The translations under genes were made by a program, and so were the position numbers. Shown piece after piece: positions 153 to 20,296 of a DNA stretch of 23,655 nucleotides (its first letter is position 1; the number at the start of each line of letters is the position of its first letter). Source of the DNA: Minisyncoccota bacterium (GTDB lineage Bacteria > Patescibacteriota > Minisyncoccia > Minisyncoccales > Minisyncoccaceae); assembly GCA_041649895.1 (NCBI GenBank), contig JBAZMG010000006.1, positions 1 to 23,655 on the forward strand. Reading direction: 5' to 3'. The notes under the pieces were generated by a model. It ran no database searches. It worked only from the letters and a program-made list of their open reading frames with translations, and was not told where the DNA came from.

Positions 153-380
153 TTTTCCAATCTCTGACCATCTGGGAATTGAAGGCGGAGGCGCGACGGC
201 GCCGAGCCGGGCCCGAGGAACACACCAGCAGGTGGGTATCCGAGGGCAATTCCCAGCATCCCGACTATTTTCCAGTCTCTGACTTTTTGGGAATTGAAGG
301 CGGAGTCGCGACGGCGACGAGCCGGGCCCGAGGAACACGCCAACAGGTGTGTATCCGAGGGCAATTCCCAGCATCCCGAC
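132..380 (+). repeat. 115-bp tandem repeat (2 full units plus a 19-nt third start); each unit begins with the tRNA-Pro 3' T-arm/acceptor sequence and contains a GC-rich hairpin module
   Basis: CAATTCCCAGCATCCCGAC at 132-150, 247-265 and 362-380 (period exactly 115); units near-identical apart from a few substitutions. Confidence 0.9.
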
Positions 381-413
381 TATTTTACCCCTCAGTCCCC
401 CATTTTAACCATC

Positions 414-2047: not shown

Positions 2048-2464
2048 ATGACCGCCGCTAATTCAAATCACAAGCTTCAGCTTGGGCAAATAGGGGAGAG
2101 TATAGCTCAAAAATACCTAATATCCAAGAAATACAAAATTTTGGATAAAAACTATTTTTTAAAGACCAAAACAAACCGCAAACTGGGAGAAATAGATCTT
2201 ATTGCCAAAAAGGGGAGTGTGTATGTTTTTATTGAAGTAAAAACAATAGCCGGCCGGGAGGGTAGGCGATTTCCACCCGCGGCAAAAATCAATCGTGTAA
2301 AAATAAAAAAGCTGATAAGGGTGGGGGAGAGCTGGCTTAAAAACCATAAACTTTCTTTGACTGTCCGGTGGCAAATTGATATAATTACTATTGAAATTGA
2401 CATTATTCGCAAAAAAGCCCTGGTCCGGCATTATGAAAACGCGATAGAAGATATTAAAAAATAA
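2048..2464 (+). CDS. yraN: YraN/UPF0102 family endonuclease-like protein
   Basis: 138-aa ORF with the family hallmark GEIDLIAKKGSVYVFIEVKT and typical size. Confidence 0.75.
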   Translation: MTAANSNHKLQLGQIGESIAQKYLISKKYKILDKNYFLKTKTNRKLGEIDLIAKKGSVYVFIEVKTIAGREGRRFPPAAKINRVKIKKLIRVGESWLKNHKLSLTVRWQIDIITIEIDIIRKKALVRHYENAIEDIKK

Positions 2465-2469
2465 ACTCT

Positions 2470-3102
2470 ATGCTTTCAAACCAAACTTTGCTGATCGTTT
2501 TAATTTTTTTCGGTTATCTTTTGGGTTCGATTCCGTTCGGATATCTTGTTGGAAAAATCAAAAATGTTGACATTAGGAAAAAAGGGAGTGGCGCCACAGG
2601 CGCGACCAACGTCTCCCGAACAGTGGGCTTTAAATATGCGATCTTGGTTGCGGCATTGGATATCGCTAAAGCGGTTCTACCTATATATATCGGGAGCCGT
2701 TTTTTTAATCCAAGCTGGAACGCAGATCCCGGGTGGCAAATGGCCCTAATCTCTATTGCTCCGGTATTAGGTCACATATTTCCAGTCTGGCTAAAATTCA
2801 AGGGAGGTAAGGGCGTGTCTGTTATCTTCGCTTGCATTATTATGGTAATGGGCTGGCAATACTCCTTAGTTCTTTTTGTCTTATGGCTGGCGCTCTTATT
2901 GCTTATAAAAACAATGAGTCTGACAAATATCTTAATTTTCCCGATTTTACCGTTCTTGTTTTGGTTCAGGACTCACTCTTGGGTGTATGTCTGGCTTGGT
3001 GTTTTTTATGTCCTTTTAATTTGGTGGGCGCATCGCGAGAATATAAAACGCATACGACAGGGGACTGAGCCGAAAACAATTCATAACAAAAATAAAGAAT
3101 AA
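2470..3102 (+). CDS. plsY: Glycerol-3-phosphate acyltransferase PlsY (acyl-phosphate dependent)
   Basis: 210-aa polytopic membrane ORF with GSIPFGYLVGK, GSGATGATNVSR and GHIFPVWLKFKGGKGV motifs. Confidence 0.85.
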   Translation: MLSNQTLLIVLIFFGYLLGSIPFGYLVGKIKNVDIRKKGSGATGATNVSRTVGFKYAILVAALDIAKAVLPIYIGSRFFNPSWNADPGWQMALISIAPVLGHIFPVWLKFKGGKGVSVIFACIIMVMGWQYSLVLFVLWLALLLLIKTMSLTNILIFPILPFLFWFRTHSWVYVWLGVFYVLLIWWAHRENIKRIRQGTEPKTIHNKNKE

Positions 3103-3127
3103 TAAAGCACGAATTAACTAATATTTA

Positions 3128-3300
3128 GGGCTTAATCCTTTTACAAATGATTAAGGGCGGAGCCGACGGCTTGATTGTACTCAATCACGGGCGCAGGGTT
3201 GACGAACCCGAGCCGGGCCTGAGGAAATTTTCAACAGAAAATTATCTGAAGGACGAGCCGGGACTTGAGCAAAACTTCAACAGGAGCTTATATGAAGGAA
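3128..3300 (+). repeat. Cluster of GC-rich structured modules (candidate ncRNA or leader) just upstream of the pilin array
   Basis: Hairpins CTTAATC/GATTAAG (3131-3155), AGCC-GAC-GGCT (3161-3171), TGATTG-TACT-CAATCA (3172-3187), GGGTT-GACG-AACCC (3196-3209), AATTTTC-AACA-GAAAATT (3226-3243). Invariant linkers GGGCGGAG and CGAGCCGGGCCTGAG are shared with the 181-247, 18599-18660 and 20213-20277 copies. Confidence 0.6.
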
Positions 3301-3320
3301 TCCTCAAACATTGAAAAACA

Positions 3321-4205
3321 ATGAAAAAAACTATAAAAAAACAATTTGCGTTTACATTAATAGAACTGCTTATCGTTATCGCAATAATCGGAATACTCTC
3401 TGCGTTGATTATCGTGGGAATGAATAATGCAACCCAAAAAGCGACAATCGCCAAAGCGCAAGTATTTTCCAATTCACTCCGTAATTCTTTGATGTCTGGC
3501 TTGTTTGCCGAGTATAAGCTCGATGGCAACGCCAGCGACACGTGGGGGACACACACAGCCGGAACAATCAGCGGCGCATCATCTTATGCGTCCTGTATAC
3601 AAAATACTTGCTATAGTTTCGATAGCGATGATGATTATATTGAACTCGCGGATGTCGCGGATTTAAGAATGATAACCGGAGGGACTATTTCCGTTTGGAT
3701 TTATCCAAAAAGCTACGGAGAGGGCACTCTTGGAAGAATAATTGATAAGTCGTCTTCGGGCGATTCCGGTTTAGGTGGTTATACTTTTAGGAATAGTTCT
3801 CTTAATAGATTATTGTTCGTAATAAATGACGGCACCAACACACTTACTCAACAAAACGTAATAACTTATAATCAATGGCAACTTGTGACAACTACTTTTA
3901 ATGATTCCGGTAGAAAGATATACGTTAACGGAATTGATAAAACGGCATCCGGAGGTAATGAAACAGATCTACCTCCCGACAGTACGGGAATAGTGGTTAG
4001 AATTGGAAACTCCGCATATGGAACAACCAGAACTTTTGACGGATATATTGATGATGTTCAAATATATAATCAAGTAATTCCGACTTCCCAAATCCAACAA
4101 AATTACTACGCGGGACTCAACAAACTTTTTGCCAACAGGGGAGTGGAAATATCTGAATACCAACAATGCTTAACTGAATTATCAAACAATTACGCTCAAC
4201 AGTAA
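3321..4205 (+). CDS. Type IV pilin-like N-terminus + LamG/concanavalin-A-like domain protein (paralog 1 of 9, most divergent)
   Basis: MKKTIKKQFA|FTLIELLIVIAIIGILSALI prepilin-type motif with Glu+5; LamG-type hallmarks (YSFDSDDDYIEL, TISVWIYP, FDGYIDDVQIYN); shared C-terminal tail QNYYAGLNKLFANRGVEISEYQQ. Confidence 0.85.
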   Translation: MKKTIKKQFAFTLIELLIVIAIIGILSALIIVGMNNATQKATIAKAQVFSNSLRNSLMSGLFAEYKLDGNASDTWGTHTAGTISGASSYASCIQNTCYSFDSDDDYIELADVADLRMITGGTISVWIYPKSYGEGTLGRIIDKSSSGDSGLGGYTFRNSSLNRLLFVINDGTNTLTQQNVITYNQWQLVTTTFNDSGRKIYVNGIDKTASGGNETDLPPDSTGIVVRIGNSAYGTTRTFDGYIDDVQIYNQVIPTSQIQQNYYAGLNKLFANRGVEISEYQQCLTELSNNYAQQ

Positions 4206-4232
4206 TGTTTGGGTATTCGATACCCAAACATT
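4204..4232. repeat. Intergenic palindrome type 1 (13-bp arms) upstream of an A-type pilin gene
   Basis: AATGTTTGGGTAT-TCG-ATACCCAAACATT, starting inside the stop codon of paralog 1. Confidence 0.8.
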
Positions 4233-4237
4233 GAAAA

Positions 4238-5176
4238 ATGATGAATAGAAATATAAAAACAAATTTGGCATTTACATTGATAGAACTACTTGTGGTTATC
4301 GCAATCATCGGGATTTTATCTGCATTAATTATCATTGGGATGAGCTCGACAACACAGAAAGCTAGTGTTGCCAAGGCGCAGGTGTTTGCCAATTCTTTGC
4401 GCAATTCATTGATGGCGGATATGGTTTCTGAGTGGAAGCTTGATGGAAACACCAATGATACTTGGGCGGCCTCATTTGCAAACAACGGAACCTGGTGGGG
4501 AACGACCGCGCCGAATACCGTCGCAACCTATGGAACTGCGTCCGAATGCGTTTCCGGACAATGTATGGATTTTGATGGCGTGGATGATATGGTGGACTTT
4601 GGGAGCAACGCTTCTTTATCTATGGGAACAAAAGATCACACAGTCTCTTTATGGGTTAAGTTTGATAATGCGACCGCAACAGACATAGACACATTGGTTA
4701 TCTGTGGAGCAATGACGGGAACAGGGAAAGATGGGTATTGGATTACAAGACTTACCGATAGATTATACTTTTATTTTACTGATGGAGAAGGAGCAAATAC
4801 AAGAATTGCCGGCTATTTATCCGCAGCCGGAACATTAATTGCTAATAATTGGTATCAAATAACCGTAACTATGGATAGGGACGGAAATGTAACGGGATAT
4901 ATAAACGGAACATCGCAAATAAGTTGGGCTATTTCTCCTCAGCCTGGAGACGTACAAAATTCCATAAGCTTTCGAATGGGAGCTTTTACTACATCCCTGT
5001 ATCGTCTCGCCGGTAAAATGGATGAAGTGAGAATTTTTCACGCTATTACGACAATATCTCAAATAGAGCAAAACTACTTCGCGGGACTGAACAAACTTTT
5101 TGCCAACAGGGGAGTGGAAACATCAGAATACCAACAACGCTTAACTGAATTATCAAACAATTACGCACGGGATTAA
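4238..5176 (+). CDS. Pilin-like + LamG-domain protein (paralog 2, subtype A); real start may be the second ATG at 4241
   Basis: M(M)NRNIKTNLA|FTLIELLVVIAIIGILSALI; EWKLDGNTNDTW...CMDFDGVDDMVDFG...TVSLWVKFDNA...GKMDEVRIFHAI; preceded by palindrome 4204-4232. Confidence 0.85.
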   Translation: MMNRNIKTNLAFTLIELLVVIAIIGILSALIIIGMSSTTQKASVAKAQVFANSLRNSLMADMVSEWKLDGNTNDTWAASFANNGTWWGTTAPNTVATYGTASECVSGQCMDFDGVDDMVDFGSNASLSMGTKDHTVSLWVKFDNATATDIDTLVICGAMTGTGKDGYWITRLTDRLYFYFTDGEGANTRIAGYLSAAGTLIANNWYQITVTMDRDGNVTGYINGTSQISWAISPQPGDVQNSISFRMGAFTTSLYRLAGKMDEVRIFHAITTISQIEQNYFAGLNKLFANRGVETSEYQQRLTELSNNYARD

Positions 5177-5206
5177 AATGTTTGGGGGTTAAACCCCCAA
5201 ACATTT
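5176..5206. repeat. Intergenic palindrome type 2 (13-bp arms)
   Basis: AAATGTTTGGGGG-TTAAA-CCCCCAAACATTT. Confidence 0.8.
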
Positions 5207-5213
5207 AAAAACG

Positions 5214-6104
5214 ATGAATAGAAATATAAAAACAAAATTGGCATTTACATTGATTGAGCTACTTGTGGTAATTGCAATCATCGGGATTTTATCCGCTTTG
5301 ATCATTATTGGGATGAGCTCGACAACGCAGAAAGCAAACATTGCAAAATCACAAATATTTGCCAATTCTTTGCGCAATTCATTGATGGGGGACATGGTTT
5401 CGGAGTGGAAGCTTGACGAAGGAGCTGGCGATACAATATCTGATACGTGGGGCAGCAATAATGGAACAAAAGCTGGGGCAACATGGGAAGCAATAACAAC
5501 CAACTGCGTCTACGGCAAGTGCTTATCTTTTGATGGTGATGCTGATAATATAAATTTCGGAAATAAAACTGATTTTAATTTGGCTAGCACAAGCCACACT
5601 ATTTCGGTTTGGTTTAAAACAAGTACGACAACTACTGACCATATAATTAGTCGCTTTAACGGCGGAAGTCCCGGCGCTGGATATGTTATTTTTGTGTCCT
5701 CTGGAAAGGTTTGTTTTTCGGAAAGAGCAGACGGGGGAGACTTTCTTGCCCGCGATTCAGCGCTAACCTACAATGATAATTCTTGGCATTTTGTAACTTA
5801 CACGGTTGATATTTCTTTAAAAACAGGGAGGTTTTGCATTGATGGAACTTTTTTGCCCCTGGATACTTATACTGGAAACTTAATAAATTATAATAATAAT
5901 TTATATATCGGTGGACCACAGGTAGGATACTATTTTACTGGCCTAATAGACGATATACGCATATATGATGCCGCAATGCCAGCTTTCCAAATCAACGAAC
6001 AATATTACACCGGATTGAATAAACTTTTGGCAAACAGGGGAGTGGAAACATCTGAATACGAGCAAAGAATCGTAGAATTAAATTATAATTATGCAGAAAA
6101 TTAA
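5214..6104 (+). CDS. Pilin-like + LamG-domain protein (paralog 3, A-type leader, divergent body)
   Basis: MNRNIKTKLA|FTLIELLVVIAIIGILSALI; CLSFDGDADNINFG...TISVWFK...FTGLIDDIRIYDAAM; preceded by palindrome 5176-5206. Confidence 0.85.
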   Translation: MNRNIKTKLAFTLIELLVVIAIIGILSALIIIGMSSTTQKANIAKSQIFANSLRNSLMGDMVSEWKLDEGAGDTISDTWGSNNGTKAGATWEAITTNCVYGKCLSFDGDADNINFGNKTDFNLASTSHTISVWFKTSTTTTDHIISRFNGGSPGAGYVIFVSSGKVCFSERADGGDFLARDSALTYNDNSWHFVTYTVDISLKTGRFCIDGTFLPLDTYTGNLINYNNNLYIGGPQVGYYFTGLIDDIRIYDAAMPAFQINEQYYTGLNKLLANRGVETSEYEQRIVELNYNYAEN

Positions 6105-7047
6105 AATTAACGCATTTACATTGATAGAACTACTTGTGGTTATTGCAATCATCGGAATTTTATCTGCTTTAATTGTTATCGGGATGAGCTCGACAACGCA
6201 AAAAGCCAGTGTTGCAAAAGCGCAAGTATTTGCGAATTCTCTGCGCAATTCGTTGCTGGCGGATATGGTTTCGGAGTGGAAATTGGATGACGGGACTGGA
6301 AACAGCACCACAAAAGATTCCTGGGCTTCGGCTTTTGCCAATACGGGGACCTTGGGAACAGCGGCAGTAGGGGATGCAAGCGAGCCCACATGGCTAAGTA
6401 CCGGTTGTGTTTCCGGAAACTGTCTTTCGTTTGACGGCGCTGATGATTATGTTGATTTCGGAAATAATGCGTCCCTATCAATGGGAACTAAAGATCATAC
6501 TGTATCACTCTGGGTTAAGTTTGATAATGCAACAGCGCCCGCTCCTAATAATGCGGAAACGCTGGCTCGTTGTGGGGTCCAAGCTGCCGGAGTTGGGCGG
6601 GATGGATATTGGATTTATAGGACTGGGAGTAGTCTATTTTTTTATTTTTCTGATGGTTCGGCGGATAGCATAGGCGGCTCATTATCAGGGTCCGGGACAC
6701 TAATAGCTAACACTTGGTATAACATAGTTGTTGCACTCGATAGAGATATTTCTGCCTATATGTATATAAATGGAGTTAAACAAACAGGCTACTCATTAAA
6801 TATCGTACCACAAAATGGAGACGTACAAAATACATCCTTGTTAATGATTGGGGCAACTTCAGCTGGCTATGGTCGGCTTGACGGTCAAATGGATGAGGTA
6901 AGAATCTTTCACGCTATTACGACAATATCTCAAATAGAGCAGAACTACTTTGCCGGACTGAACAAACTTTTGGCAAACAGGGGAGTGGAAACGTCTGAAT
7001 ATGAGCAAAGAGTCGCGAATTTAACTTCAAACTATGCAAAGAATTAA
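6091..7047 (+). CDS. Pilin-like + LamG-domain protein (paralog 4, subtype B)
   Basis: MQKIKINA|FTLIELLVVIAIIGILSALI; EWKLDDGTGNSTTKDSWAS...CLSFDGADDYVDFG; ATG lies inside the previous gene's NYAEN-stop codons (14-nt overlap). Confidence 0.85.
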   Translation: MQKIKINAFTLIELLVVIAIIGILSALIVIGMSSTTQKASVAKAQVFANSLRNSLLADMVSEWKLDDGTGNSTTKDSWASAFANTGTLGTAAVGDASEPTWLSTGCVSGNCLSFDGADDYVDFGNNASLSMGTKDHTVSLWVKFDNATAPAPNNAETLARCGVQAAGVGRDGYWIYRTGSSLFFYFSDGSADSIGGSLSGSGTLIANTWYNIVVALDRDISAYMYINGVKQTGYSLNIVPQNGDVQNTSLLMIGATSAGYGRLDGQMDEVRIFHAITTISQIEQNYFAGLNKLLANRGVETSEYEQRVANLTSNYAKN

Positions 7048-7978
7048 AATTAACGCATTTACTTTGATAGAACTGTTGGTTGTAATAGCGATCATCGGTA
7101 TTTTATCTGCGTTGATTGTTGTGGGTATGAGCTCGGCGACGCAGAAAGCCAGTGTTGCAAAAGCGCAAGTATTTGCTAATTCTTTGCGGAATTCCTTAAT
7201 GGCGGATATGGTTTCCGAATGGAAATTAGATGACGGAACCGGAAACAGCACAACGAAAGATTCCTGGGCTTCGACTTTTACTAATACCGGGACACTGGGG
7301 ACTGCGACGGTAGGGGATGCAAGCGAGCCCACATGGCTAAGTACTGGTTGCGTTTCTGGAAACTGTCTATCTTTCGATGGAGCTGACGACTATGTTAATT
7401 TTGGCAATAACGCTTCATTGAGTATGGGAACAAAAGATCACACAATATCTTTATGGGTTGAATTTATTAATCCAACGGCACTGCAAGATGAAACAATGAT
7501 TCGCACGGGAGCTGGCGGTAGTGGAGCTGGCTATTGGATTTATAGATTTACCGGAACAAATAAATTAAGGTTTCTTTTTCATGACGGAGTTGGTTCGCAG
7601 GCATCCGGATATTTGTCGGCGGATGGCACATTAGTTGCTGGTATTTGGTATAATATAGCTATAATAATGGATAGGGATTCCAATGCCCAAGCTTATATAA
7701 ACGGGCAAATACAAACCAGTTACCCAATAGTTATATCTGGAAACCAAGGAACTATACAAAATGTTACAAATCTAATGGTTGGAGCGCAAGACGCGTCAAC
7801 ACGACGGCTTACCGGCAAAATGGATGAAGTAAAAATATTTCACGCAATACCGTCAATCTCCCAAATTCAACAAAACTATTACGCCGGACTGAACAAACTT
7901 TTGGCAAAAAGAGGGGTGGAAACATCAGAATATGAGCAAAGAGTCGCGGATTTAATTTCAAACTACGCAAAAGAATAA
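7034..7978 (+). CDS. Pilin-like + LamG-domain protein (paralog 5, subtype B)
   Basis: MQRIKINA|FTLIELLVVIAIIGILSALI; same architecture; 14-nt overlap with paralog 4. Confidence 0.85.
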   Translation: MQRIKINAFTLIELLVVIAIIGILSALIVVGMSSATQKASVAKAQVFANSLRNSLMADMVSEWKLDDGTGNSTTKDSWASTFTNTGTLGTATVGDASEPTWLSTGCVSGNCLSFDGADDYVNFGNNASLSMGTKDHTISLWVEFINPTALQDETMIRTGAGGSGAGYWIYRFTGTNKLRFLFHDGVGSQASGYLSADGTLVAGIWYNIAIIMDRDSNAQAYINGQIQTSYPIVISGNQGTIQNVTNLMVGAQDASTRRLTGKMDEVKIFHAIPSISQIQQNYYAGLNKLLAKRGVETSEYEQRVADLISNYAKE

Positions 7979-8005
7979 TGTTCGGGTATTCGATACCCAG
8001 ACATT
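7977..8005. repeat. Intergenic palindrome type 1 (one mismatch, one G-U)
   Basis: AATGTTCGGGTAT-TCG-ATACCCAGACATT. Confidence 0.75.
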
Positions 8006-8010
8006 GAAAA

Positions 8011-8955
8011 ATGATGAATAGAAATATAAAAACAAATTTGGCATTTACGTTGATTGAGCTATTGGTCGTAATAGCGATTATTGGTATTCTTTCGGCTTTG
8101 ATCGTTATTGGGATGAGCTCGACAACTCAAAAAGCTAGTGTTGCCAAGGGCCAAGTATTTGCTAATTCTTTACGCAATTCGTTAATGTCAGATATGGTCT
8201 CGGAGTGGAAATTGGATGGAAACACTAACGACACTTGGGCGGCCTCGTACGCGAACAACGGAACTTGGTCAGGTCCAACCGCGCCAAACACAGTCGCTAC
8301 TTATGGACCGGCAGCTGAATGCGTTTCCGGACAATGTATGGATTTTGATGGAGTGGACGATTTAGTTGATTTTGGAAATAACGCTTCGCTATCAATGGGA
8401 ACAAAAGATCACACAGTCTCTTTATGGATTAAGTTTGACAATGCAACAGCCCCACAACACGAAGTTTTGATTATTAGTGGCGGCAACATTGTTGCTCCTG
8501 GATATGCTGGTTATGATATTTTAAGATACACCGGAATGAGTCGACTATATGTTGAATTTTCCGATGGCTCGGCAAATAATGTCGGTGCCTATTTATCCGC
8601 ATCGGGAACATTAGTATCTAATATTTGGTATAATATAGTAGTAATTTTTGACAGAGACGGAGTTGCCAAGGCATATATTAACGGATTGTCACAGGCGGGA
8701 ACATTAAATATATCGGTTCAACCGGGCAATGTACAAAATATTTACAACTTAAGGTTGGGGGCGTGGACACCGTCCCAATTTCGTCTTGCTGGTAAAATGG
8801 ATGAAGTGAGAATATTTCACGCGATAACAACACTTTCCCAAATTCAGCAAAACTACTACGCGGGACTGAACAAGCTTTTTGCAAACAGGGGAGTGGAAAC
8901 ATCCGAATATCAACAAAGGATCGTAGAATTAAATTCGAATTATGCAAAGAATTAA
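8011..8955 (+). CDS. Pilin-like + LamG-domain protein (paralog 6, subtype A); start may be 8014
   Basis: M(M)NRNIKTNLA|FTLIELLVVIAIIGILSALI; N-terminal ~150 aa near-identical to paralog 2; preceded by palindrome 7977-8005. Confidence 0.85.
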   Translation: MMNRNIKTNLAFTLIELLVVIAIIGILSALIVIGMSSTTQKASVAKGQVFANSLRNSLMSDMVSEWKLDGNTNDTWAASYANNGTWSGPTAPNTVATYGPAAECVSGQCMDFDGVDDLVDFGNNASLSMGTKDHTVSLWIKFDNATAPQHEVLIISGGNIVAPGYAGYDILRYTGMSRLYVEFSDGSANNVGAYLSASGTLVSNIWYNIVVIFDRDGVAKAYINGLSQAGTLNISVQPGNVQNIYNLRLGAWTPSQFRLAGKMDEVRIFHAITTLSQIQQNYYAGLNKLFANRGVETSEYQQRIVELNSNYAKN

Positions 8956-9895
8956 AATCAACGCATTCACATTAATAGAACTACTTGTGGTTATTGCAAT
9001 CATCGGGATTTTGTCTGCATTAATTATCATTGGGATGAGCTCGACAACACAGAAAGCTAGTGTTGCCAAGGCGCAAGTGTTCGCTAATTCTCTACGTAAT
9101 TCATTGATGTCGGATATGGTTTCGGAGTGGAAGCTTGATGATGGGACAGGAAACAGCACAACGAAAGATTCCTGGGCTTCGACTTTTACAAATACGGGGA
9201 CCTTGGGAACCGCAGCAGTGGGGGATGCAAGCGAGCCCACATGGCTAAGTACTGGTTGCGTTTCCGGAAACTGTCTTTCTTTTGACGGCACCGACGATTA
9301 TGTTGATTTTGGGAGCAATGCGTCTTTATCTATGGGGACTAAAGACCATACTGCGTCATTCTGGGTTAAATTTGATAATGCGGTAGCAATAGAAAATAAT
9401 ACACTGATTAAATGCGGGGCCTTCGGCGCCTCTCTTGGATCAGACGGATACTGGCTTGTTAGATTAAACGGTACAAACAAACTATATTGTTATTTCTCCG
9501 ACGGAGAAACAACAACATTGCTTGGTAATTATTTATCCGCGGATGGTTCTTTGGTTGCCGATACTTGGTACAATATTGTTGTAATGTTCGACAGGAGCGG
9601 AGTGGCTCAAGCATACATAAATGGCGTAATACAATCAGGAACACTAAACATATCATCACAAACAGGAGACGTGCAAAATAGTAGAAGTTTTACTATTGGA
9701 GCCTGGTCAGCAACACTACATCGATCCGCTGGCAAAATGGACGAAGTACGAATATTCCACGCGATTACGACACTTTCTCAAATTCAACAAAACTACTTCG
9801 CAGGACTGAACAAACTTTTGGCTAATGGGGAAGTGGAAACATCAGAATACCAACAACGCTTAACTGAATTATCAAACAATTACGCACGGGATTAA
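8942..9895 (+). CDS. Pilin-like + LamG-domain protein (paralog 7, subtype B N-terminus with the paralog-2 type C-terminus)
   Basis: MQRIKINA|FTLIELL...; the last 64 nt of the CDS plus the downstream hairpin are 100% identical to 5113-5210. Confidence 0.85.
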   Translation: MQRIKINAFTLIELLVVIAIIGILSALIIIGMSSTTQKASVAKAQVFANSLRNSLMSDMVSEWKLDDGTGNSTTKDSWASTFTNTGTLGTAAVGDASEPTWLSTGCVSGNCLSFDGTDDYVDFGSNASLSMGTKDHTASFWVKFDNAVAIENNTLIKCGAFGASLGSDGYWLVRLNGTNKLYCYFSDGETTTLLGNYLSADGSLVADTWYNIVVMFDRSGVAQAYINGVIQSGTLNISSQTGDVQNSRSFTIGAWSATLHRSAGKMDEVRIFHAITTLSQIQQNYFAGLNKLLANGEVETSEYQQRLTELSNNYARD

Positions 9896-9925
9896 AATGT
9901 TTGGGGGTTAAACCCCCAAACATTT
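9895..9925. repeat. Intergenic palindrome type 2 (identical to 5176-5206)
   Basis: AAATGTTTGGGGG-TTAAA-CCCCCAAACATTT. Confidence 0.8.
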
Positions 9926-9931
9926 AAAACA

Positions 9932-10870
9932 ATGAATAGAAATATAAAAACAAAATTGGCATTTACATTGATAGAATTATTGGTCGTGATTGCAATCATC
10001 GGGATACTTTCGGCTTTGATCATTATTGGGATGAGTTCGACGACACAGAAAGCTAGTGTTGCCAAATCGCAGGTGTTTGCCAATTCATTGCGCAATTCTT
10101 TGATGGCGGATATGGTTTCAGAATGGAAATTGGACGGGAATACTAACGATACTTGGGCGTCTTCAAATGCGAACAACGGAACGTGGTCGGGACCAACCGC
10201 GCCGAATGCCGTCGCTACTTACGGGACGGCAGCCGAATGCGTCTCCGGACAATGTATGGATTTTGACGGTGTGGATGATGTAGTTGATTTTGGAAATAAC
10301 GCTTCGTTATCAATGGGAACAAAAGATCACACAGTCTCTATTTGGGTTAAATTCGATAACGCATCACCCCCAACAGAAGAAGAAACATTAATTTTTTGCG
10401 GCGGAACAGTGGCCGCGACAGAAGGCTATTGGATCAGGAGACAAATTGGAGGAACAGGAATTTATTTTTGTTTTAACGATGGCTCGGCAACAAGGGCTAA
10501 CGGTGCTTTATCAGCGAACGGAACTTTAATTAATAATATTTGGTATAATATAGTAATAACAATGGACAGAGATTCTAATGCCCAAGCATATATAAATGGA
10601 CAAAAACAAACTGGTTATGTTGTTAGTCTCTCCTCTTGGCAAACCGACATACAGAATACTTATAATTTCCAAATTGGTGGATTTGGAGCTGTTTATACAA
10701 TGGCGGGAAAAATTGATGAAGTAAGAATATTCAATGCGATAACAACACTTTCTCAAATTCAACAAAATTACTTTGCAGGACTGAACAAACTTTTTACCAA
10801 CAAGGGAGTGGAACCGTCTGAATACCAAAAAGAGGTCACGAATTTAATTTCAAACCATGCAAAGAATTAA
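9932..10870 (+). CDS. Pilin-like + LamG-domain protein (paralog 8, subtype A)
   Basis: MNRNIKTKLA|FTLIELLVVIAIIGILSALI; preceded by palindrome 9895-9925. Confidence 0.85.
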   Translation: MNRNIKTKLAFTLIELLVVIAIIGILSALIIIGMSSTTQKASVAKSQVFANSLRNSLMADMVSEWKLDGNTNDTWASSNANNGTWSGPTAPNAVATYGTAAECVSGQCMDFDGVDDVVDFGNNASLSMGTKDHTVSIWVKFDNASPPTEEETLIFCGGTVAATEGYWIRRQIGGTGIYFCFNDGSATRANGALSANGTLINNIWYNIVITMDRDSNAQAYINGQKQTGYVVSLSSWQTDIQNTYNFQIGGFGAVYTMAGKIDEVRIFNAITTLSQIQQNYFAGLNKLFTNKGVEPSEYQKEVTNLISNHAKN

Positions 10871-11816
10871 CAAAGCATTTACATTAATTGAGCTATTGGT
10901 TGTGATAGCGATTATTGGTATTCTTTCGGCTTTGATCGTTATTGGGATGAGCTCAACAACACAGAAAGCCAGTGTTGCCAAGGCGCAAGTGTTTGCGAAT
11001 TCTCTGCGCAATTCGTTGCTGGCGGATATGGTTTCGGAGTGGAAATTGGATGACGGGACTGGAAACAGCACCACAAAAGATTCGTGGGCTTCGGTTTATG
11101 CCAATACGGGAACATTGGGAACAGCGGCGGTGGGGGACGCGAGCGAGCCAACATGGCTAAGTACCGGTTGCGTTTCCGGAAACTGCCTTGATTTTGACGG
11201 CGCTGACGATTATGTTGATTTTGGAAGCAATGCGTCTTTATCTATGGGGACTAAAGACCATATTGCGTCATTCTGGGTTAAATTTGATAATGCAGTGGCG
11301 GGCGCGCAACCCGAAACGCTAATAGTTTGCGGTTCAGTTACCGGTGGGGCGACTGGAGACGATGGTTATTGGATTGTACGCTATCAAGGAACAAGCAAAA
11401 TAAGAGGATATTTTTCTGATGGTTCGGCGGCATATATCGGCGGAGATTTATCTGCTAATAGTGTTTTTGTCGCTAATACTTGGTATAACATAGTAACAAC
11501 TTTTGATAGAGATGGAGTTGTTCAGGCATATGTTAATGGATTAAAACAAACGGGTTATTCAATAAACATTGCTCCTCAACAAGGAGATGTACAAAATTAT
11601 ATGAATTTGCGAATTGGAGCCTATTCGGCAACCGGACACCGTCTCGATGGTCAAATGGATGAGGTAAGAATCTTTCACGCCATAACAACGCTGTCTCAAA
11701 TAAAGCAAAACTATTACGCAGGACTGAACAAACTTTTTGCCAAAAACTCCCTAAATAGGGTAGAATATGAGTATAGGATGGCGGAATTACAAACTTCATC
11801 TTTAGCAAACAAATGA
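10857..11816 (+). CDS. Pilin-like + LamG-domain protein (paralog 9, subtype B, divergent C-terminal tail)
   Basis: MQRINKA|FTLIELLVVIAIIGILSALI; 14-nt overlap with paralog 8; its TGA stop overlaps the next gene's ATG (ATGA at 11813-11816). Confidence 0.85.
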   Translation: MQRINKAFTLIELLVVIAIIGILSALIVIGMSSTTQKASVAKAQVFANSLRNSLLADMVSEWKLDDGTGNSTTKDSWASVYANTGTLGTAAVGDASEPTWLSTGCVSGNCLDFDGADDYVDFGSNASLSMGTKDHIASFWVKFDNAVAGAQPETLIVCGSVTGGATGDDGYWIVRYQGTSKIRGYFSDGSAAYIGGDLSANSVFVANTWYNIVTTFDRDGVVQAYVNGLKQTGYSINIAPQQGDVQNYMNLRIGAYSATGHRLDGQMDEVRIFHAITTLSQIKQNYYAGLNKLFAKNSLNRVEYEYRMAELQTSSLANK

Positions 11817-12413: not shown

Positions 12414-12471
12414 CATAAAAACCGCCTTCGCCCCGAGCTAACCAAAAGCTACGGCGAGGCGCAGAAATATT

Positions 12472-13189: not shown

Positions 13190-15001
13190 TTGATATTTAT
13201 GGATACAATAACGTACAAAGAACTACAAAAAATGATCCTCTTTTCCGGGGAGAGGGTTAATAGAGATAAAGAACAAATAAACAAGATCAATGTATTTCCG
13301 GTTCCGGACCAGGACACGGGCTCTAATTTGGCTGCGACATTAAAGGGAATAAAAGAAGCGATTGAAGGCAAAGAATTCGGCTCAATGGAAGAATTCGCGA
13401 ACACCGTTTTGGACAGCGCCCTGACTGCGGCGCAAGGCAATGCCGGAATTATTTACACCGGATTTTTGGCCGGGTTTTTGCCCGCGATAAGCGACGTGGA
13501 AGAAGTTGATGCCAAAAAGCTTGGCAATGCTTTTAAGCTCGGATACGAGCGAGCAAAAGACTCAATCCAAAATCCGAAAGAGGGAACTATTTTAGATGTT
13601 GTCCACGCTTTTGCCGAAACTTTTAACGAGTTATCAGAAGAAAAAGAAGATATCATCGAAATATTTTACGAATCTTTCGGGAAGGCCAACCAGGCCCTGC
13701 TTGATACGCCGAATAAAATGGAATTACTGAAAAAGGCCGGCGTGGTTGATGCCGGGGGATTGGGATTTTTAATGATCCTTGAAACCTACCTTGATACGCT
13801 AAAGGAACAGACCGTGGAAAAGGTCGCGGCAAAACCCTTCCTTGCTCCGGGCGAAGAATCAGCCACGAGAAAGTTCGTCCAAATTCTATCAAACCGATAC
13901 GAAGTGGTCGCCCTGTTGGCAAATCCGAACTTAAAAGAAAAAGAGATCAGGGACAAACTGAAAAATCTGGGCAATTGCCTTGATATTATCCAAATCGCGA
14001 ACCGAATAAAGATACACATCCACACCGATGACCCTTATGAGACCAGAGATATTATTTCCAATATGGGTACGGTCGAAAATCTGAGAATTCAGGATATGGC
14101 GAGGGAAGTGGTGGGAGAAGAGTCGATGGAAAACGTTTCCATCGGCATTGTAATCGATGAACGCGCGGGATTGAGCCAAAAAATAATCCAGCATTATGAT
14201 ATTGAAGTAATCCCGTTCCGTATCACCTGGCCGGAAGAACAAAACTTGCCCGGGCACAACGTGTGCGAAAAAATAAAAGAAGCGAAAAAGAAGGGATTGA
14301 ACACCAAACCGAAGATCTCTTCCATTTCTCCGGAATTCTTTATGGAATCGTACAAAAAACAATTGGAAAAATTTGAAACTATTATCTGCATTGTCAGTAG
14401 CTCCAAACTTTCCGACAACTACAATTCCGCCCTGAAAGCGCGGGAAATGCTAAATTGGAATATGAGAGAAAGGGTTTTTGTCGTTGATTCGAAAAACATC
14501 AGCGCCGGACAATCCCTTGTGGTTTTGGAAGCGATCGAGCTCATCCGGGAACAGAGAAAAATAAAAGAAATAAAAGAACGCTTGGAAGTGGCGATTCCTC
14601 AGATCAATCTGCTCGGCATTTTAAAAAACGCGGCGTGGTGGAAAAAAGACAATCCGACCGCGAAGTTTTGGTTTACCAAAGAAAAACCGCAAGATTCTTT
14701 TTGGCTCATAGAAACAAAAGATGGAAAAATCAATCCAACGGAAAAAGTAAGATCAAATGATTTCGCCGACGTCTTGTTCAAAAAAATAGAACGGGCCGCG
14801 CGAAGAGACTTGCGAGAAGGTAAAAAGATCAGAGTGGTTATCGCGCACGCCGACAGCCTGGATCAAGCGGAAAAGCTCAAAGAAAAATTAAAGACCACGA
14901 AACGGGCTGATATTTCCTTTATCAGTATCACAGATCCGGTCACAAGCATAAACGCTTGCCCGGACAGCCTTATAGTGGCGTGGATCGTTCACCCGAGTTA
15001 A
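13190..15001 (+). CDS. DAK2-domain protein of the YloV/FakA (fatty acid kinase) type with a C-terminal DegV-like domain; start may be 13199
   Basis: NVFPVPDQDTGSNLAATL and KKAGVVDAGGLGFLMILE (Dak2/YloV hallmarks). The C-terminal half (from VSIGIVIDERAGL) is paralogous to the two downstream DegV genes. Confidence 0.75.
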   Translation: MIFMDTITYKELQKMILFSGERVNRDKEQINKINVFPVPDQDTGSNLAATLKGIKEAIEGKEFGSMEEFANTVLDSALTAAQGNAGIIYTGFLAGFLPAISDVEEVDAKKLGNAFKLGYERAKDSIQNPKEGTILDVVHAFAETFNELSEEKEDIIEIFYESFGKANQALLDTPNKMELLKKAGVVDAGGLGFLMILETYLDTLKEQTVEKVAAKPFLAPGEESATRKFVQILSNRYEVVALLANPNLKEKEIRDKLKNLGNCLDIIQIANRIKIHIHTDDPYETRDIISNMGTVENLRIQDMAREVVGEESMENVSIGIVIDERAGLSQKIIQHYDIEVIPFRITWPEEQNLPGHNVCEKIKEAKKKGLNTKPKISSISPEFFMESYKKQLEKFETIICIVSSSKLSDNYNSALKAREMLNWNMRERVFVVDSKNISAGQSLVVLEAIELIREQRKIKEIKERLEVAIPQINLLGILKNAAWWKKDNPTAKFWFTKEKPQDSFWLIETKDGKINPTEKVRSNDFADVLFKKIERAARRDLREGKKIRVVIAHADSLDQAEKLKEKLKTTKRADISFISITDPVTSINACPDSLIVAWIVHPS

Positions 15002-15051
15002 ACAATTTTGCTTTGCAAAATTAGCGCATAGCGCTGTTTAACCGGGTAAAA

Positions 15052-15086
15052 TAAGAATAAAGAATCAGGAATCAAGAATTAAGAAT
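15052..15086 (+). repeat. Five in-phase heptamer repeats NARGAAT upstream of the first degV gene
   Basis: TAAGAAT AAAGAAT CAGGAAT CAAGAAT TAAGAAT. Confidence 0.7.
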
Positions 15087-15132
15087 AAAAACAGGGAACG
15101 ATTCCAATTCATAAAAATTAGATATTAAATCA

Positions 15133-16026
15133 ATGGAAACAGAAAACCAAAACAAAAAATTAATTGGCATCGTGGCCGACGAGGCCGTTGACCTGCCTGA
15201 TTCAATTGTACAAGAAAACGAGATATCGCTCGTAAAATTCAAATTGGATTTCGAAGAACTAAAGGATGTTCCCGGCAATGTTTATGAAAAAATGCGCGAG
15301 GGAGAGAGAAGGGGACTCAAGACCATTGCCAAGACATCACAACCATCCATTAATGACTTTTTAGGCGCGTACCGGGAAAAACTGAAAAGATTTGAAGAGA
15401 TAATTTGCTTCACCATATCGGGAAAACTATCAGGAACTTTTAACTCCGCTTTACAGGCAACAAAATTTTTACCAAAAGAAGCCCAAGATAAAATTCATCT
15501 GGTTGATACATTGAACGCAACCGGGGGAGAAGGTCTTGTAGCTTTGTGGGCAGCCGATATGATCAAAGAAGCAAAATTGAAAGCCGGAGAGATCGCGGAA
15601 ACAATACGGAAAAATGTTTCCAATTTCAAACTGATCGGGATCTATGGAACACCGAAATGGCTTGAAGCGAGCGGACGCTTGCCAAAATTTTTGCCGGCAC
15701 CCTTGAGGCAAGCGGAAAAAATGAACCTCAAGCCTATTTTTGCCCTGAAAAACGGAAAGATTACTTTTATAAGCATTCGAAAAAACTTAAATGGCATCGC
15801 GAATACTCTATTCCAAGAGTTTGAAAAGCAAACTCTGGCGGCGCGCAATCAAGGAAAAAAGATCAGAGCCGCGATCACTCACGGCGACAACCCGGCTGGA
15901 GCGGAAGAACTGAAAAATTTGGTCTCAAGTTTGGAAAATGTAAAAGTGGAGTTTATAAGCCTGGCTTGTTTTCCGATCGGAGGACATGTCGGCCCGGAAT
16001 CATTAGTGCTTTCCTGGCAACAATAA
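15133..16026 (+). CDS. DegV family fatty-acid-binding protein (FakB-like)
   Basis: IGIVADEAVDLP, TSQPSINDFLGAY, ISGKLSGTFNSALQA; 297 aa. Confidence 0.85.
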   Translation: METENQNKKLIGIVADEAVDLPDSIVQENEISLVKFKLDFEELKDVPGNVYEKMREGERRGLKTIAKTSQPSINDFLGAYREKLKRFEEIICFTISGKLSGTFNSALQATKFLPKEAQDKIHLVDTLNATGGEGLVALWAADMIKEAKLKAGEIAETIRKNVSNFKLIGIYGTPKWLEASGRLPKFLPAPLRQAEKMNLKPIFALKNGKITFISIRKNLNGIANTLFQEFEKQTLAARNQGKKIRAAITHGDNPAGAEELKNLVSSLENVKVEFISLACFPIGGHVGPESLVLSWQQ

Positions 16027-16096
16027 CCCCCACCTTTTTAAAAAAGATGGGGGCAAAAAAGAATAAAAATAAAGAAACACTAATTGCATAAAATAT

Positions 16097-16972
16097 ATGA
16101 GTATCAAAATCATCGTAGGCGAAAGCGCCCCCACGACTCCGGATATTGTGGCAAAGTACGGTTTTGCGACCGTACCGTTTAAGATCGATTGGCCCGAGTT
16201 CGACACCATTAAGGGCAATACGCTTTTTCAAAAAATGCGCGAAGCGAAAAAGCAAGGCATCAAAACCACCCCCAAAACTTCTCAGCCGTCTATAGGCATA
16301 TACAAAAAAGCTTTTGACGAAGCCCTTGTCGACAACGAATATATTCTCGCGATCACTATCAGCTCCGGCATCTCGGGAACTTACAACTCCGCCATTCAAG
16401 CAAAAAAGATGTTCAGTGAAGACGCGCAAAAAAAGATCTATGTTTTTGATACATTTAACGCCGATGCCGCGGAAAGCTTGTTTGCCATTAAAGCGGGGGA
16501 TATGGCGGTGCAAGAAAAGACCATTGATGAAGTAATGGCAAAATTGGAAGAATTAAAACCATCAGCCAAACTGTACGGATTTTTGGACGACCCTTATTGG
16601 CTTGAGGCCGGAGGCAGGATCAGCCATGCCGTAGCCGTAATAATGGCGCAAATGCAAAAGATCGGAATGCGGCCTCTTTTGTCAATGAAAGACGGGGTTG
16701 TTAAGCCGGCGAATCTGAAAATGCAAGCCAAGGACACGGCCGATGCTTTGTTTAAACAGCTGGAAAGCATTGTAAAAGATCCTCTCGCGGACGGGAAAAA
16801 GGTAAGCGTTGCCATAAGCCACGCGGACAATCCCGGAGAGGCCGAAAACTTGAAAAAAATGATCGAAGAAAAATATCCTAGCGCTAAAATAGAATTCGTG
16901 ACCGAGACCGGTCCGGTGATCGGCGCGCACATCGGACCCGGATCATTAATTTGCTGCTGTTTAATAGATTAA
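16097..16972 (+). CDS. DegV family fatty-acid-binding protein (FakB-like), second paralog
   Basis: TSQPSIGIYKKAF, ISSGISGTYNSAIQA, GPVIGAHIGPGS; 291 aa. Confidence 0.85.
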   Translation: MSIKIIVGESAPTTPDIVAKYGFATVPFKIDWPEFDTIKGNTLFQKMREAKKQGIKTTPKTSQPSIGIYKKAFDEALVDNEYILAITISSGISGTYNSAIQAKKMFSEDAQKKIYVFDTFNADAAESLFAIKAGDMAVQEKTIDEVMAKLEELKPSAKLYGFLDDPYWLEAGGRISHAVAVIMAQMQKIGMRPLLSMKDGVVKPANLKMQAKDTADALFKQLESIVKDPLADGKKVSVAISHADNPGEAENLKKMIEEKYPSAKIEFVTETGPVIGAHIGPGSLICCCLID

Positions 16973-17105: not shown

Positions 17106-17810
17106 ATGATCTTTAATTTAATTGCGATCGCTTTAATTTCTTACATTCTGGGATCAATTCCTTTTTCTCTGGTTTTTGTCAAATTGTTTACGAAAAAAAA
17201 CCTGCACGAACTGGGATCAAAAAACGCAGGAGCATTAAATACCCTGAGGATCGTTGCCAAAGAAAAAGGGAAGGTTTGGGGCGTCTTATCTTTTCTTTTG
17301 GTCGGAATTCTGGACGCAAGCAAGGGTGTTTTCGCCGTCTTAATCGCCAAAAGTTATTTTTTCCCGATTCTTTTGCAAACATCAGCGGAAATAACAATGC
17401 CCTGGCCGACCATTGTCGCCATTATCGCGTTCTTTGCCGTACTCGGACACAATTATTCCATTTTCTTAAAATTCAAGGGTGGAAGAGGGGCTGCCACCTT
17501 ATTTGGTATTCTTTTGTATTTAAACGTTACGGCAGCTCTCGGTATTCTCGGCTTTGTTCTTTTGTTTATTTTTTTAGGAGAACTGCTGGCCGGACACAAA
17601 TTAAACAAAAAATTCGTAAGCGCCGCGATATCAAACCAGATCATTGGCCGGCTTTTGGGAGAAATTGTCGGGCTGTTCTGGATGTACACTATTGATCCTA
17701 TGGTGTTTTATATCGCCGCTTTGCCGATTGTATTAATTGTTTTCGCGCACAAAGACAGGCTTGACGAACAAATTAAAAAGATCAAAGATAAAACCTATCT
17801 AAAAGATTAA
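17106..17810 (+). CDS. plsY: PlsY-family acyltransferase paralog 2 (divergent)
   Basis: LGSIPFSLVFVKL, GSKNAGALNTLR, LDASKG, GHNYSIFLKFKGGRGAAT; 234 aa. Confidence 0.7.
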   Translation: MIFNLIAIALISYILGSIPFSLVFVKLFTKKNLHELGSKNAGALNTLRIVAKEKGKVWGVLSFLLVGILDASKGVFAVLIAKSYFFPILLQTSAEITMPWPTIVAIIAFFAVLGHNYSIFLKFKGGRGAATLFGILLYLNVTAALGILGFVLLFIFLGELLAGHKLNKKFVSAAISNQIIGRLLGEIVGLFWMYTIDPMVFYIAALPIVLIVFAHKDRLDEQIKKIKDKTYLKD

Positions 17811-17814
17811 ACAA

Positions 17815-18483
17815 ATGCAAACATATATTTTGTATCTATTGTTGCTTATAGTCTCTTATTTGGCCGGATCTATTCCTTTCAGTTATATTATTACCCGTCT
17901 CTCCACGCATAAAAATATTTTGGAGATCGGATGGAAAAAAAGCTCGGGGTCCAATGTTTTAAAAAACGTGGGCAAATGGCAGGGAGTACTTGTTTTTCTT
18001 TTGGATGTGGCCAAAGGATTTTTTGTCATCTGGCTCGCGAGAGAACTCGGCACGCCAGCATACTTTCAATCGTTGTGCGGAGTCGCCGCGGTAGTGGGAC
18101 ACAATTGGTCTATATTTTTAAAGGGGAGCGGGGGCAGAGGATTAGCCGCTCTGGTCGGAGCCTTGCTTGCTTTCTCTCCTTTGTTTCTCGCGATAATCTT
18201 ACTCCCGACAATTCTTTTAACTTTTCTTTGGACCGCCTCGATCGGCACACTTTTATCTCTCGCGTTCGGAATCGCGATTGGATTCGGCTGTGTTTATTGC
18301 AAGCCAATGGGCCTTATGCTACTTATATCCTTGACCCCGATATTTATAAAACGCTTAAGCCCGATAAAAGAGATCCCCGGAGCAAAGAACAAAGCGGAAC
18401 TGATCAAAAATCGTTTGCTTTTTGACCAAGACACTGTTCCGCCTTTACGAATAACAAAGTATTTTAATAAGAAAAAGGCTTAA
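17815..18483 (+). CDS. plsY: PlsY-family acyltransferase paralog 3 (most divergent)
   Basis: AGSIPFSYIITRL, LDVAKG, GHNWSIFLKGSGGRGLAA; motif 1 degenerate (KKSSGSNVLKN); 222 aa. Confidence 0.6.
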   Translation: MQTYILYLLLLIVSYLAGSIPFSYIITRLSTHKNILEIGWKKSSGSNVLKNVGKWQGVLVFLLDVAKGFFVIWLARELGTPAYFQSLCGVAAVVGHNWSIFLKGSGGRGLAALVGALLAFSPLFLAIILLPTILLTFLWTASIGTLLSLAFGIAIGFGCVYCKPMGLMLLISLTPIFIKRLSPIKEIPGAKNKAELIKNRLLFDQDTVPPLRITKYFNKKKA

Positions 18484-18498: not shown

Positions 18499-18734
18499 GC
18501 AAACATTTATTTAGACTGTATTATTAGGACGCTTCTCGCAAGAAAATTTTCACCAGAAAATTTGCTGAGCGCTTAATTATTTATTTTAAAATAATTAAGG
18601 GCGGAGGGCCGACGGGCCCGAGCCTGTCCTGAGCGCAAATTCAACTGAATTTGACGCGAAGGAGTGCAGACGCCGGCGACGGCCGGCGGATGACACGTCG
18701 AACGAATAATGCAGTCTAAAAGCTAAATGTTTGC
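18499..18734 (+). ncRNA. 236-nt GC-rich structured element closed by a ~27-bp inverted repeat (candidate ncRNA or MITE-like element) just upstream of tRNA-Arg
   Basis: Arms GCAAACATTTATTTAGACTGTATTATT (18499-18525) and AATAATGCAGTCTAAAAGCTAAATGTTTGC (18705-18734). Internal hairpins at 18544-18563, 18572-18599, 18606-18619 (GGGCC-GACG-GGCCC), 18636-18653, 18672-18687 (GCCGGC-GACG-GCCGGC). Confidence 0.55.
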
Positions 18735-20205: not shown

Positions 20206-20296
20206 GGATTCGAAGGCGTAGCCACGACGGTGGCGAGCCGGGCCCTGAGAATTTTTCAGCAGAAAAATATCGAAGGGCGAATCCCTCACGGGGCAC
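20206..20296 (+). repeat. GC-rich structured module fused to a 19-nt duplicate of the tRNA-Lys 3' end
   Basis: GGATTCG (20206-20212) pairs with CGAATCC (20278-20284). Hairpins GCCAC-GACG-GTGGC (20221-20234) and ATTTTTC-AGCA-GAAAAAT (20251-20268). CGAATCCCTCACGGGGCAC at 20278-20296 duplicates 20059-20077. Confidence 0.8.

Follow-up and report, generated by a model that had tools for sequence, protein, structure and literature searches.

Several described systems come close to the locus studied here. In termination–reinitiation (TeRe) pairs, the downstream gene starts a few bases before the upstream stop codon, in the +1 frame (PMC10666635, PMC12548453). Overlaps of −4, −1 and −8 form the range of efficient coupling, −14 being longer (PMC10666635); tight coupling is mostly of the −4/−1 kind (PMC10666635, PMC12548453), and coupling weakens as overlaps lengthen (PMC12548453). 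Phase-1 overlaps of −8, −11 and −14 are the commonest of the longer overlaps in prokaryotes (PMC10666635).

Classical GTAG REP/RAYT systems comprise a transposase gene between two inverted palindromes and extragenic copies that are often found at stop codons, with a core that varies with the enzyme between genomes (PMC2817692). TIRYT transposases, which form subclass 2.1 of TnpA-Y1 and correspond to Bertels group 1, are proteins of about 238 aa with the HuH motif NH[YF]H, an FQ motif, a Y[IV]HLNP-like motif and an SS tail; their genes have an inverted repeat on either side, further copies of which are scattered in the genome, and the flanking repeats can form dispersed families (PMC6006769, PMC3733652). 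Among pilins, Streptococcus sanguinis PilC is a modular minor pilin that bears a lectin (PMC9934059; PDB 7oa8/7oa7), and its class-3 leader belongs to a type that may end in Gly or Ala (PMC9934059). A gracilibacterium encodes 15 large GspG-like proteins (PMC6851277), and hence the multiplication of pilins in CPR bacteria is already known; the accessible portion of PMC10936435 makes no mention of lectin pilins.

In this study, we analyzed the first 23,655 bases (hereafter the window) of contig C6 (JBAZMG010000006.1) from a Minisyncoccota metagenome-assembled genome of 959 kb in 95 contigs (designated as G000), together with the genomes of its relatives. An earlier note on this DNA had described a row of genes of two alternating subtypes, B genes that start within the last codons of the preceding gene and A genes that follow a palindrome. 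The overlap itself is ordinary; the scale of the gene family and the place of the repeat at its joints carry most of the interest.

A row of pilin–LamG genes and its family

Nine array genes occupy positions 3321-11816 on the forward strand, and the products of all nine score above the Pfam cut-off for both PF07963 (prepilin N-methylation motif) and PF13385 (Laminin_G_3). The order given earlier, namely outlier, A, A′, B, B, A, B, A, B, is confirmed. Gene 1 (3321..4205) encodes a divergent protein of 294 aa with the pilin leader and LamG domain. It is followed by gene 2 (A; 4241..5176, with an alternative ATG at 4238), gene 3 (A′; 5214..6104), which has a divergent lectin domain, gene 4 (B; 6091..7047), with pilin leader and LamG, gene 5 (B; 7034..7978), gene 6 (A; 8014..8955), gene 7 (B; 8942..9895), gene 8 (A; 9932..10870) and gene 9 (B; 10857..11816). 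A profile built from the nine proteins matched 77 ORFs in G000, 73 of them at 85 bits or more and on 17 contigs. The 73 ORFs, a count that takes in partial ORFs, amount to 64,374 nt, or 6.7% of the 0.96-Mb assembly. Identity between paralogs is about 19% across the variable portion of the lectin.

The start of B genes had been read as a signal peptide. The leader is real, although it is a class-3 prepilin leader (A|FTLIE) rather than a Sec signal peptide; A|FTLIE is present in all nine genes, and TIGR02532 scored above its cut-off in both products tested. In the array genes fetched from genera g3, g7 and g8, the prepilin cleavage site is S|F, in place of G|F or A|F. The structural model of the gene 6 product (pLDDT 89, pTM 0.82) has the pilin helix at residues 13-58 (pLDDT 67-89 along it), a LamG-type sandwich at 61-268 and two C-terminal helices at 274-290 and 296-312, ending at residue 312. 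Fold searches with this model returned LamG-type sandwiches at 8-19% identity, and the match to S. sanguinis PilC had a Z score of 16.4 and an rmsd of 3.3 over 201 residues. The two proteins are alike in the class-3 leader, the long alpha-1 helix and the concanavalin-A-like lectin module; they differ in that identity is 14-16%, in that a single lectin domain is here followed by a C-terminal helical hairpin, and in that about 70 paralogs stand against a single PilC (PMC9934059). PilD, PilB/PilT-type ATPases and ordinary pilins are encoded on contig C7. Judged by fold, these proteins are probably minor pilins whose varied heads would bind glycans and serve in attachment to a host cell.

The top folds also included the receptor-binding subdomain of clostridial neurotoxins, with matches to PF07953, and a toxin was considered. 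The likeness lies in the shared LamG-type sandwich (11-19% identity), and this reading was rejected because the proteins leave no room for the catalytic or translocation domains of a toxin. Among the few members with a record in atlas clusters of the pilin–LamG architecture, most belong to Minisyncoccota. No description of a pilin–lectin expansion was found in the literature searched, which covered few subscription papers.

Several other features of the window were noted. Gene 9 ends in an unrelated tail (SLANK) and overlaps by −4 a CarS-like gene (PF01864; 11813-12370). Three PlsY-like acyltransferase genes lie at 2470-3102 (confirmed by Pfam), 17106-17810 and 17815-18483, and the row at 13190-16972 presumably consists of DAK2/DegV-like genes. 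A short ORF of fewer than 120 codons stands between AT-rich direct repeats beside tRNAs at 19073-19426; it resembles the four-helix-bundle intervening-sequence proteins. The stretch 660-1950 is free of ORFs and holds repeated palindromes and repeated 9-mers.

The short overlap at B joints

All four B genes in the window start 14 nt before the end of the upstream stop codon, in the +1 frame, as had been reported: the shared segments are 6091..6104 (genes 3/4), 7034..7047 (genes 4/5), 8942..8955 (genes 6/7) and 10857..10870 (genes 8/9), and each ATG is the first ATG, GTG or TTG of its own ORF. The leaders are, in order, MQKIKINA, MQRIKINA, MQRIKINA and MQRINKA. The consensus proposed for the overlap (AAT-TAT-GCA at its beginning) fits the tails NYAEN of gene 3, NYAKN and NYAKN, whereas NHAKN of gene 8 (AAC-CAT) falls outside it, the ATG of gene 9 being formed from CAT-G. 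Upstream of the A genes in the window, the tails read NYAQQ, NYARD, NYAKE (gene 5) and NYARD with the tyrosine codon TAC, and thus contain no ATG there.

Among the 50 adjacent family pairs of G000 that are no more than 200 nt apart, 23 overlap, all by −14, 22 hold a palindrome, and the other five have gaps of 9, 42 (with a degenerate palindrome), 54, 54 and 68 nt. A 24th overlap lies at the end of contig C3. All 24 overlapping family junctions are thus −14, and they combine 15 leaders, 6 to 9 residues in length, with 14 tails. By a crude ORF call, a single pair among the 226 co-oriented gene pairs outside the family has the −14 spacing, as against 23 of the 50 adjacent family junctions, and overlaps of −8, −11, −14 and −17 together occur in 17 of the 226. 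The recurrence of the −14 joints is not a matter of chance but of descent: they are copies of one another and not 24 independent events.

The supposed conservation of NYAKN did not hold up. This tail is found at 5 of the 24 overlaps of the family in G000, the final five columns of an alignment of 96 family proteins are without a majority residue, and relatives use other tails and other overlap lengths. The conserved feature is the short overlap, which belongs to a well-known class, rather than a dual-coded peptide. Arrays that keep NYAKN and lose the overlap had been named as evidence against dual coding; such cases are partly found in G000 itself, where NYAK-type tails stand 5′ of palindrome joints and the ATG is absent. 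The codon at the Tyr position 5′ of the palindromes is TAC in 19, TAT in 4, TTC in 3 and another in 1 (n = 27), while family genes overall have TAC at 229 of 883 Tyr codons (26%); the tails at palindrome joints are 65% identical. The TAC bias would fit inheritance from a single founder joint or, alternatively, selection that removes stray restarts.

The family profile matched 24 of the 41 genomes searched, and several genomes of the same taxonomic family carry large sets (at E 1e-25, G008 has 64 matches, G011 37, G003 36, G023 31, G014 20, G017 15 and G001 10). Genomes of genera g3 and g8 have 15-64 pilin–LamG matches, and those of g5 have two genes per genome (5/5 searched). A search for related loci with a generic pilin motif only returned mostly unrelated pilins. 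We examined junctions in 39 fetched regions, which were mostly chosen for adjacent matches and are a sample of the relatives' arrays; 57 junction rows less three G017 duplicates left 54 distinct ones. Of these, 45 overlap (22 by −8, 16 by −11, 5 by −14 and 2 by −4). The tails at the joints are NNE in genera g3 and g7 and AYE, AYDK or AYDKE in g8; −8, −11 and −14 coexist within G008; and the NYA-type −14 joint also occurs in G001, of the same genus as G000, and in G066 (g5; SYAEN). Recoding of TAG in G008 was considered and rejected, the TAG codons within matches being genuine stops at overlap joints.

Six of the relatives' junctions lack the overlap (gaps of +3 to +49) and retain an intact downstream start, as does the junction at C3:12177 in G000. 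At G000:C3:12167-12177 and in regions L023, L011 and L034 of relatives, the upstream gene ends differently and the old tail remains before the ATG, with gaps of +3 to +12.

As to how the genes are started, an assumed anti-Shine–Dalgarno (SD) motif showed no enrichment before crudely called starts (9.4% versus 9.2%), and an SD-like duplex is present at 1 of 23 B starts and 1 of 22 A starts. A motif search of the assembly did not recover the 3′ end of the 16S rRNA. B starts are predicted to be unstructured (median MFE 0.0). With the same crude ORF calls, a −10 box stands 5-10 nt before the ATG of 7 of 18 first genes in G000 and 22 of 43 in relatives (controls, 2/18 and 1/43), at 2 of 23 B starts and at 0 of 22 A starts, and the latter count gives no sign of internal promoters at palindrome joints. 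The −10 box of first genes, which in about half of them lies 6-9 nt ahead of the ATG, is of the kind seen at leaderless starts, and a weaker bump appears genome-wide as well; the literature searched yielded nothing usable on leaderless translation in CPR bacteria. We infer that the rows are transcribed from a promoter of the first gene, often leaderless, and that the inner genes need SD-free starts, which restart would supply. Translational coupling of B genes is likely, given the missing SD signal and the leaderless-type first genes. The claim that it is obligatory is unsupported, since the B starts are predicted to be unstructured, coupling declines with overlap length (PMC12548453), and the downstream gene is intact at joints where the overlap has gone. 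The A starts, which lie 6-8 nt behind a stable hairpin, carry predicted structure that an upstream ribosome could unwind.

The joints resemble TeRe pairs in the position and frame of the start and in the −8/−11/−14 series, which is also present in relatives; they differ in that one −14 joint has been copied to 24 paralog junctions and in an overlap longer than the −4/−1 at which tight coupling is mostly known (PMC10666635, PMC12548453). The overlap might instead be a neutral by-product, in which the upstream gene happened to find a stop in another frame of the next leader, rich in K, N and I, and B genes start independently in AU-rich sequence. The unstructured, SD-free B starts would suit this account, as would the overlap length that floats within G008, the seven non-overlapping joints with intact starts described above (six in relatives and C3:12177), and the abundance of phase-1 overlaps among the long overlaps of prokaryotes (PMC10666635). 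However, all 24 joints of G000 stay at −14 despite leaders of 6-9 residues and lectin parts that are about 19% identical, and the out-of-frame ATG has mostly gone before palindromes (TAT in 4 of 27), as would be expected if ribosomes restarted there. We regard a neutral origin as a serious but rather unlikely explanation.

Palindromes at A joints and an associated transposase

As had been noted, palindromes precede all four A starts in the window, in gaps of 35-37 nt. The first (4204..4232) has perfect 13-bp arms, the left of which overlaps the stop codon of gene 1; the second (5173..5209; 29-bp unit 5177-5205) has 18-bp arms (94%) and a second type of core; the third (7977..8005) is degenerate, with two mismatches, and shares the core of 4204-4232; and the fourth (9892..9928; 29-bp unit 9896-9924) has 18-bp arms (94%) and the core of 5173-5209. 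Gene 1, set apart earlier as an outlier, is indeed divergent, although it retains a palindrome right arm (3302..3312) 8 nt 5′ of its ATG and thus has an A-type start. The repeat is a self-complementary 29-mer with outer arms of 10 bp and nine variable bases. With up to three mismatches, 50 copies were found in G000, whereas three Markov controls gave 0, 1 and 0. Of the 50 copies, 26 adjoin family genes, and the other 24 are away from them. The palindrome is thus not a marker of an A subtype, as had been thought, but a repeat that is spread through the genome and associated with a transposase. Copies no more than 70 nt from family genes show 18 different cores, six of which recur elsewhere in the genome, and this sharing suggests that the palindromes at joints exchange with the genome-wide pool through repeated insertion or conversion of cores.

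A transposase ORF of 249 aa (C23:8846-8097) is enclosed by two identical inverted palindromes, 11 nt before its start and 7 nt after its stop. Its motifs (NHFH, LFQG, YLHFNP and WSS) were read against Table 1 of PMC6006769 by motif and not with the HMMs of that paper. It scored 23.1 bits against PF01797 (cut-off 23) and 34.4 bits (E 1.8e-8) against NCBIfam NF047646 (REP_Tyr_transpos), below the cut-off of 80. Inspection by eye found no constant GT(A/G)G head beside the palindrome, the flanks of the 50 copies being variable. GGGGWSAS occurs exactly in the flanks of G066 and in one core type of G000, with one mismatch in the flanks of the G000 transposase, and is absent from the others.

As judged from these motifs, the ORF fits a HUH tyrosine transposase of the TIRYT, or subclass 2.1, type. 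It shares with TIRYT systems the HuH motif NHFH and the FQ, Y-x-H-x-N-P and SS motifs, and the location inside an inverted pair of repeats, further copies of which are dispersed in the genome, while GGGGWSAS fits only some of the palindrome cores; it differs in the constant outer arms and interchangeable cores of a self-complementary 29-mer, in that half of the copies are at the joints of one gene family, and in its Patescibacterium host (PMC3733652, PMC6006769). The classical GTAG REP/RAYT arrangement, described above, is alike in the enclosing inverted palindromes, the extragenic copies, often at stops, and the core that varies with the enzyme between genomes, and it differs in the GTAG head, which this palindrome does not have, and in the NF047646 score of 34 bits, short of 80 (PMC2817692). 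The literature searched contained no report of TIRYT-type repeats in Parcubacteria or Patescibacteria, and the supplementary TIR lists of PMC3733652 and PMC6006769 could bear on their novelty.

Close homologs of the transposase (67-74% identity) occur in genus g5, where 4/4 adjoin palindromes of this family, each with a core of its own (two flanking copies in three of the four, an upstream copy in the fourth); a homolog of 45% identity carries a different repeat. By genus, the palindrome pattern is present in 2/2 genomes of g1, 6/6 of g5 and 0/44 other genomes of the taxonomic family. In g3 and g8 the pilin–LamG genes have expanded without it, and g5 has the palindrome with two family genes; the repeat and the expansion are therefore separable. 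Across the family, the palindrome appears to follow the transposase and not the gene expansion, in the sense of co-distribution only. G001 holds 18-23 palindromes, and no transposase match was found in it at E 1e-20 (genome 89% complete); two g5 genomes also hold palindromes with no close transposase match.

Other mobile or repeated elements were observed. C12:9098-9424 is a second, more distant transposase match, and an IS200-type TnpA lies at the start of C72; a perfect 31-bp hairpin with a different core at G000:C12:2301 is possibly another transposase-associated repeat. Another repeat family, represented by 27 matches to a 13-mer, lies between the stop codon and the palindrome in joints of 73-75 nt, with TAA on both sides, at six junctions on C3, C18, C19 and C24, and one copy stands 3′ of the CarS-like gene at 12423-12463 of the window. 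A third, GC-rich family (window 176-385, 3152-3300, 18598-18660 and 20209-20280) includes two tandem copies behind a tRNA at ~80-151 and others near other tRNAs and before gene 1, where its sequence stands in place of the palindrome's left arm. We also considered a mini-ORF relay, in which an ATG of the left arm, often as TAATG, is read through the hairpin. It was rejected, there being no enrichment: the mini-ORF has nine codons at 4205 and 7978, is broken at 5176 and 9895, and remains open in 16 of the 21 copies at junctions versus 50 of 58 readings of copies elsewhere.

The palindromes could be recombination joints, at which the HUH transposase nicks the single-stranded hairpins and copies or reshuffles the genes as cassettes, the hairpins acting much as integron attC sites do. 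Such a role would agree with the 26 of 50 copies that sit beside a family filling 6.7% of the genome, with the six cores that the 18 found near family genes have in common with copies elsewhere, with the 73 family ORFs of G000, which has the transposase, versus the 10-11 of G001, in which none was found, and with run X2, from another study, in which the left flank of the array is identical and pieces of the array are different. It is opposed by expansions as large without the palindrome or a close transposase (G008 64, G003 36, G011 37) and by g5, which has both and yet two family genes; moreover, the exact shared tracts run through the joints, with mosaic breakpoints inside coding DNA, and the enrichment of palindromes at the family follows from co-duplication. 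We consider such joints improbable. In its fullest form, in which a domesticated HUH transposase and its hairpins, set with exchangeable cores at the joints of some 70 pilin–lectin genes, would edit an adhesin library, switching translation from coupled to hairpin-controlled and cutting for integron-like reshuffling, the proposal is likewise doubtful; if it were true, an episymbiont would vary its host-binding pili in an integron-like way. On tandem duplication driven by REP elements, the literature searched yielded nothing usable.

Mosaic genes and gene order

An amplified A-B two-gene unit, with B obligatorily coupled through a dual-coded NYAKN/MQ.I segment, was the explanation offered by the earlier note. 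It has in its favor that the last four genes of the window run A, B, A, B and that, in a quick tree of 64 complete members, the A genes 2, 6 and 8 form a clade (SH-aLRT 96) and the B genes of the window group with two C16 genes (94). In the same tree, from which nine partial ORFs were left out and in which 24 of 61 inner branches are open, A and B genes are interspersed, although the A trio and the B genes of the window each group. Alternation is not found genome-wide: among 29 genes flanked at each end by an A or B joint, BB occurs 11 times, AA 7, BA 6 and AB 5 (Fisher p 0.27 for junction order), B joints run to five on C30 and to three on C8 and on C16, and a B-B succession is part of the window array itself. 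Segment identities and the tree likewise lack the pairing of genes (6,7) with (8,9) that amplification of the unit predicts.

The difference between A and B genes in the window is clear only in alignment columns 69-125, and outside these columns a gene's nearest partner varies. Over the hydrophobic segment, identity is 96% between genes 2 (A) and 7 (B) and 92% between genes 6 (A) and 9 (B). The final 98 nt of gene 7 through its joint are identical to the sequence of gene 2, and genes 7 and 9 are 97% identical in columns 126-146. The seven closer genes are 53-61% identical in the variable region, and a PHI-like test on these seven indicated recombination (p = 0.001). When the last helix of each gene was compared with its nearest neighbor, the type of the downstream joint matched in 31 of 37 cases and that of the upstream joint in 14 of 27. 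We have thus shown that neighbors are joined by two inherited blocks, each made up of the final helix of the upstream gene, the joint itself and the leader of the gene downstream; since these blocks have been reassorted among genes by recombination, A and B name a joint and not a fixed pair of genes. Against these exchanges between A and B genes, and with NYAKN at 5 of 24 joints and other tails and lengths in relatives, the A-B unit with its dual coding is very improbable.

Contigs assembled by Logan from run X1, which may come from the source sample, extend across the junctions 7978/8014, 8942/8955 and 10857/10870 with 0 differences. In run X2, the flank 2400-3182 is identical, and pieces of the array differ at 33/273 and 57/1,385 bases and stand in another order; this hints at variation at the level of strains, though other paralogs may be involved. 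Parts of the array without cover in X2 or X3 (X3 share 0.07) were left uninterpreted. That the regular joints and mosaics are an artefact of metagenome assembly, with near-identical repeats collapsed, is hardly credible: the genome is a MAG in 95 contigs, no listed Logan contig covers the whole array, the array holds exact repeats of 48-98 nt, and the local gene order in it could be wrong, but X1 contigs span those three junctions, both joint types recur on many contigs and also in G001 and G066, and the variable regions are just 53-61% identical among the seven closer genes.

Discussion

What survives of the earlier reading is the sharing of nucleotides between neighboring genes and the plausible coupling of B genes; the A-B unit, the conserved NYAKN and the palindrome as a subtype marker do not. 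The explanation that we favor, and think probably right as a whole, is that of polycistronic rows of pilin–lectin genes, whose overlap and palindrome joints are blocks reassorted among genes, in which coupling would be helpful and expansion would have been driven by recombination. The overlap would be the older joint, given that short overlaps occur in five genera and palindrome joints in this genus only, a direction derived by parsimony over genera without a rooted species tree. At a −14 joint, a ribosome finishing one gene may restart 14 nt back on the next, an event that would be helpful but probably not obligatory. The A joint would have arisen when a transposase-associated palindrome settled at a stop codon; a change from TAT to TAC may then have removed the old ATG, and initiation would have passed to a codon 6-8 nt past the hairpin. 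Repeats near stop codons reportedly affect translation, as work by Liang from 2015 is said to have found. The hairpin likely makes translation of A genes weaker or differently controlled and protects the upstream mRNA. The expansion would have been driven by unequal crossing-over and by gene conversion within the conserved pilin helix and the C-terminal helices.

Two types of joint in one family are a natural experiment, in which coupling can be compared with hairpin-adjacent initiation without an SD signal. The palindrome and its transposase extend repeats of the TIRYT type to Patescibacteria. A genome of less than 1 Mb devotes 6.7% of its DNA to one modular pilin–lectin family, and several relatives do likewise; if the products are pilus adhesins, they would be a candidate answer to how Patescibacteria recognize their hosts.
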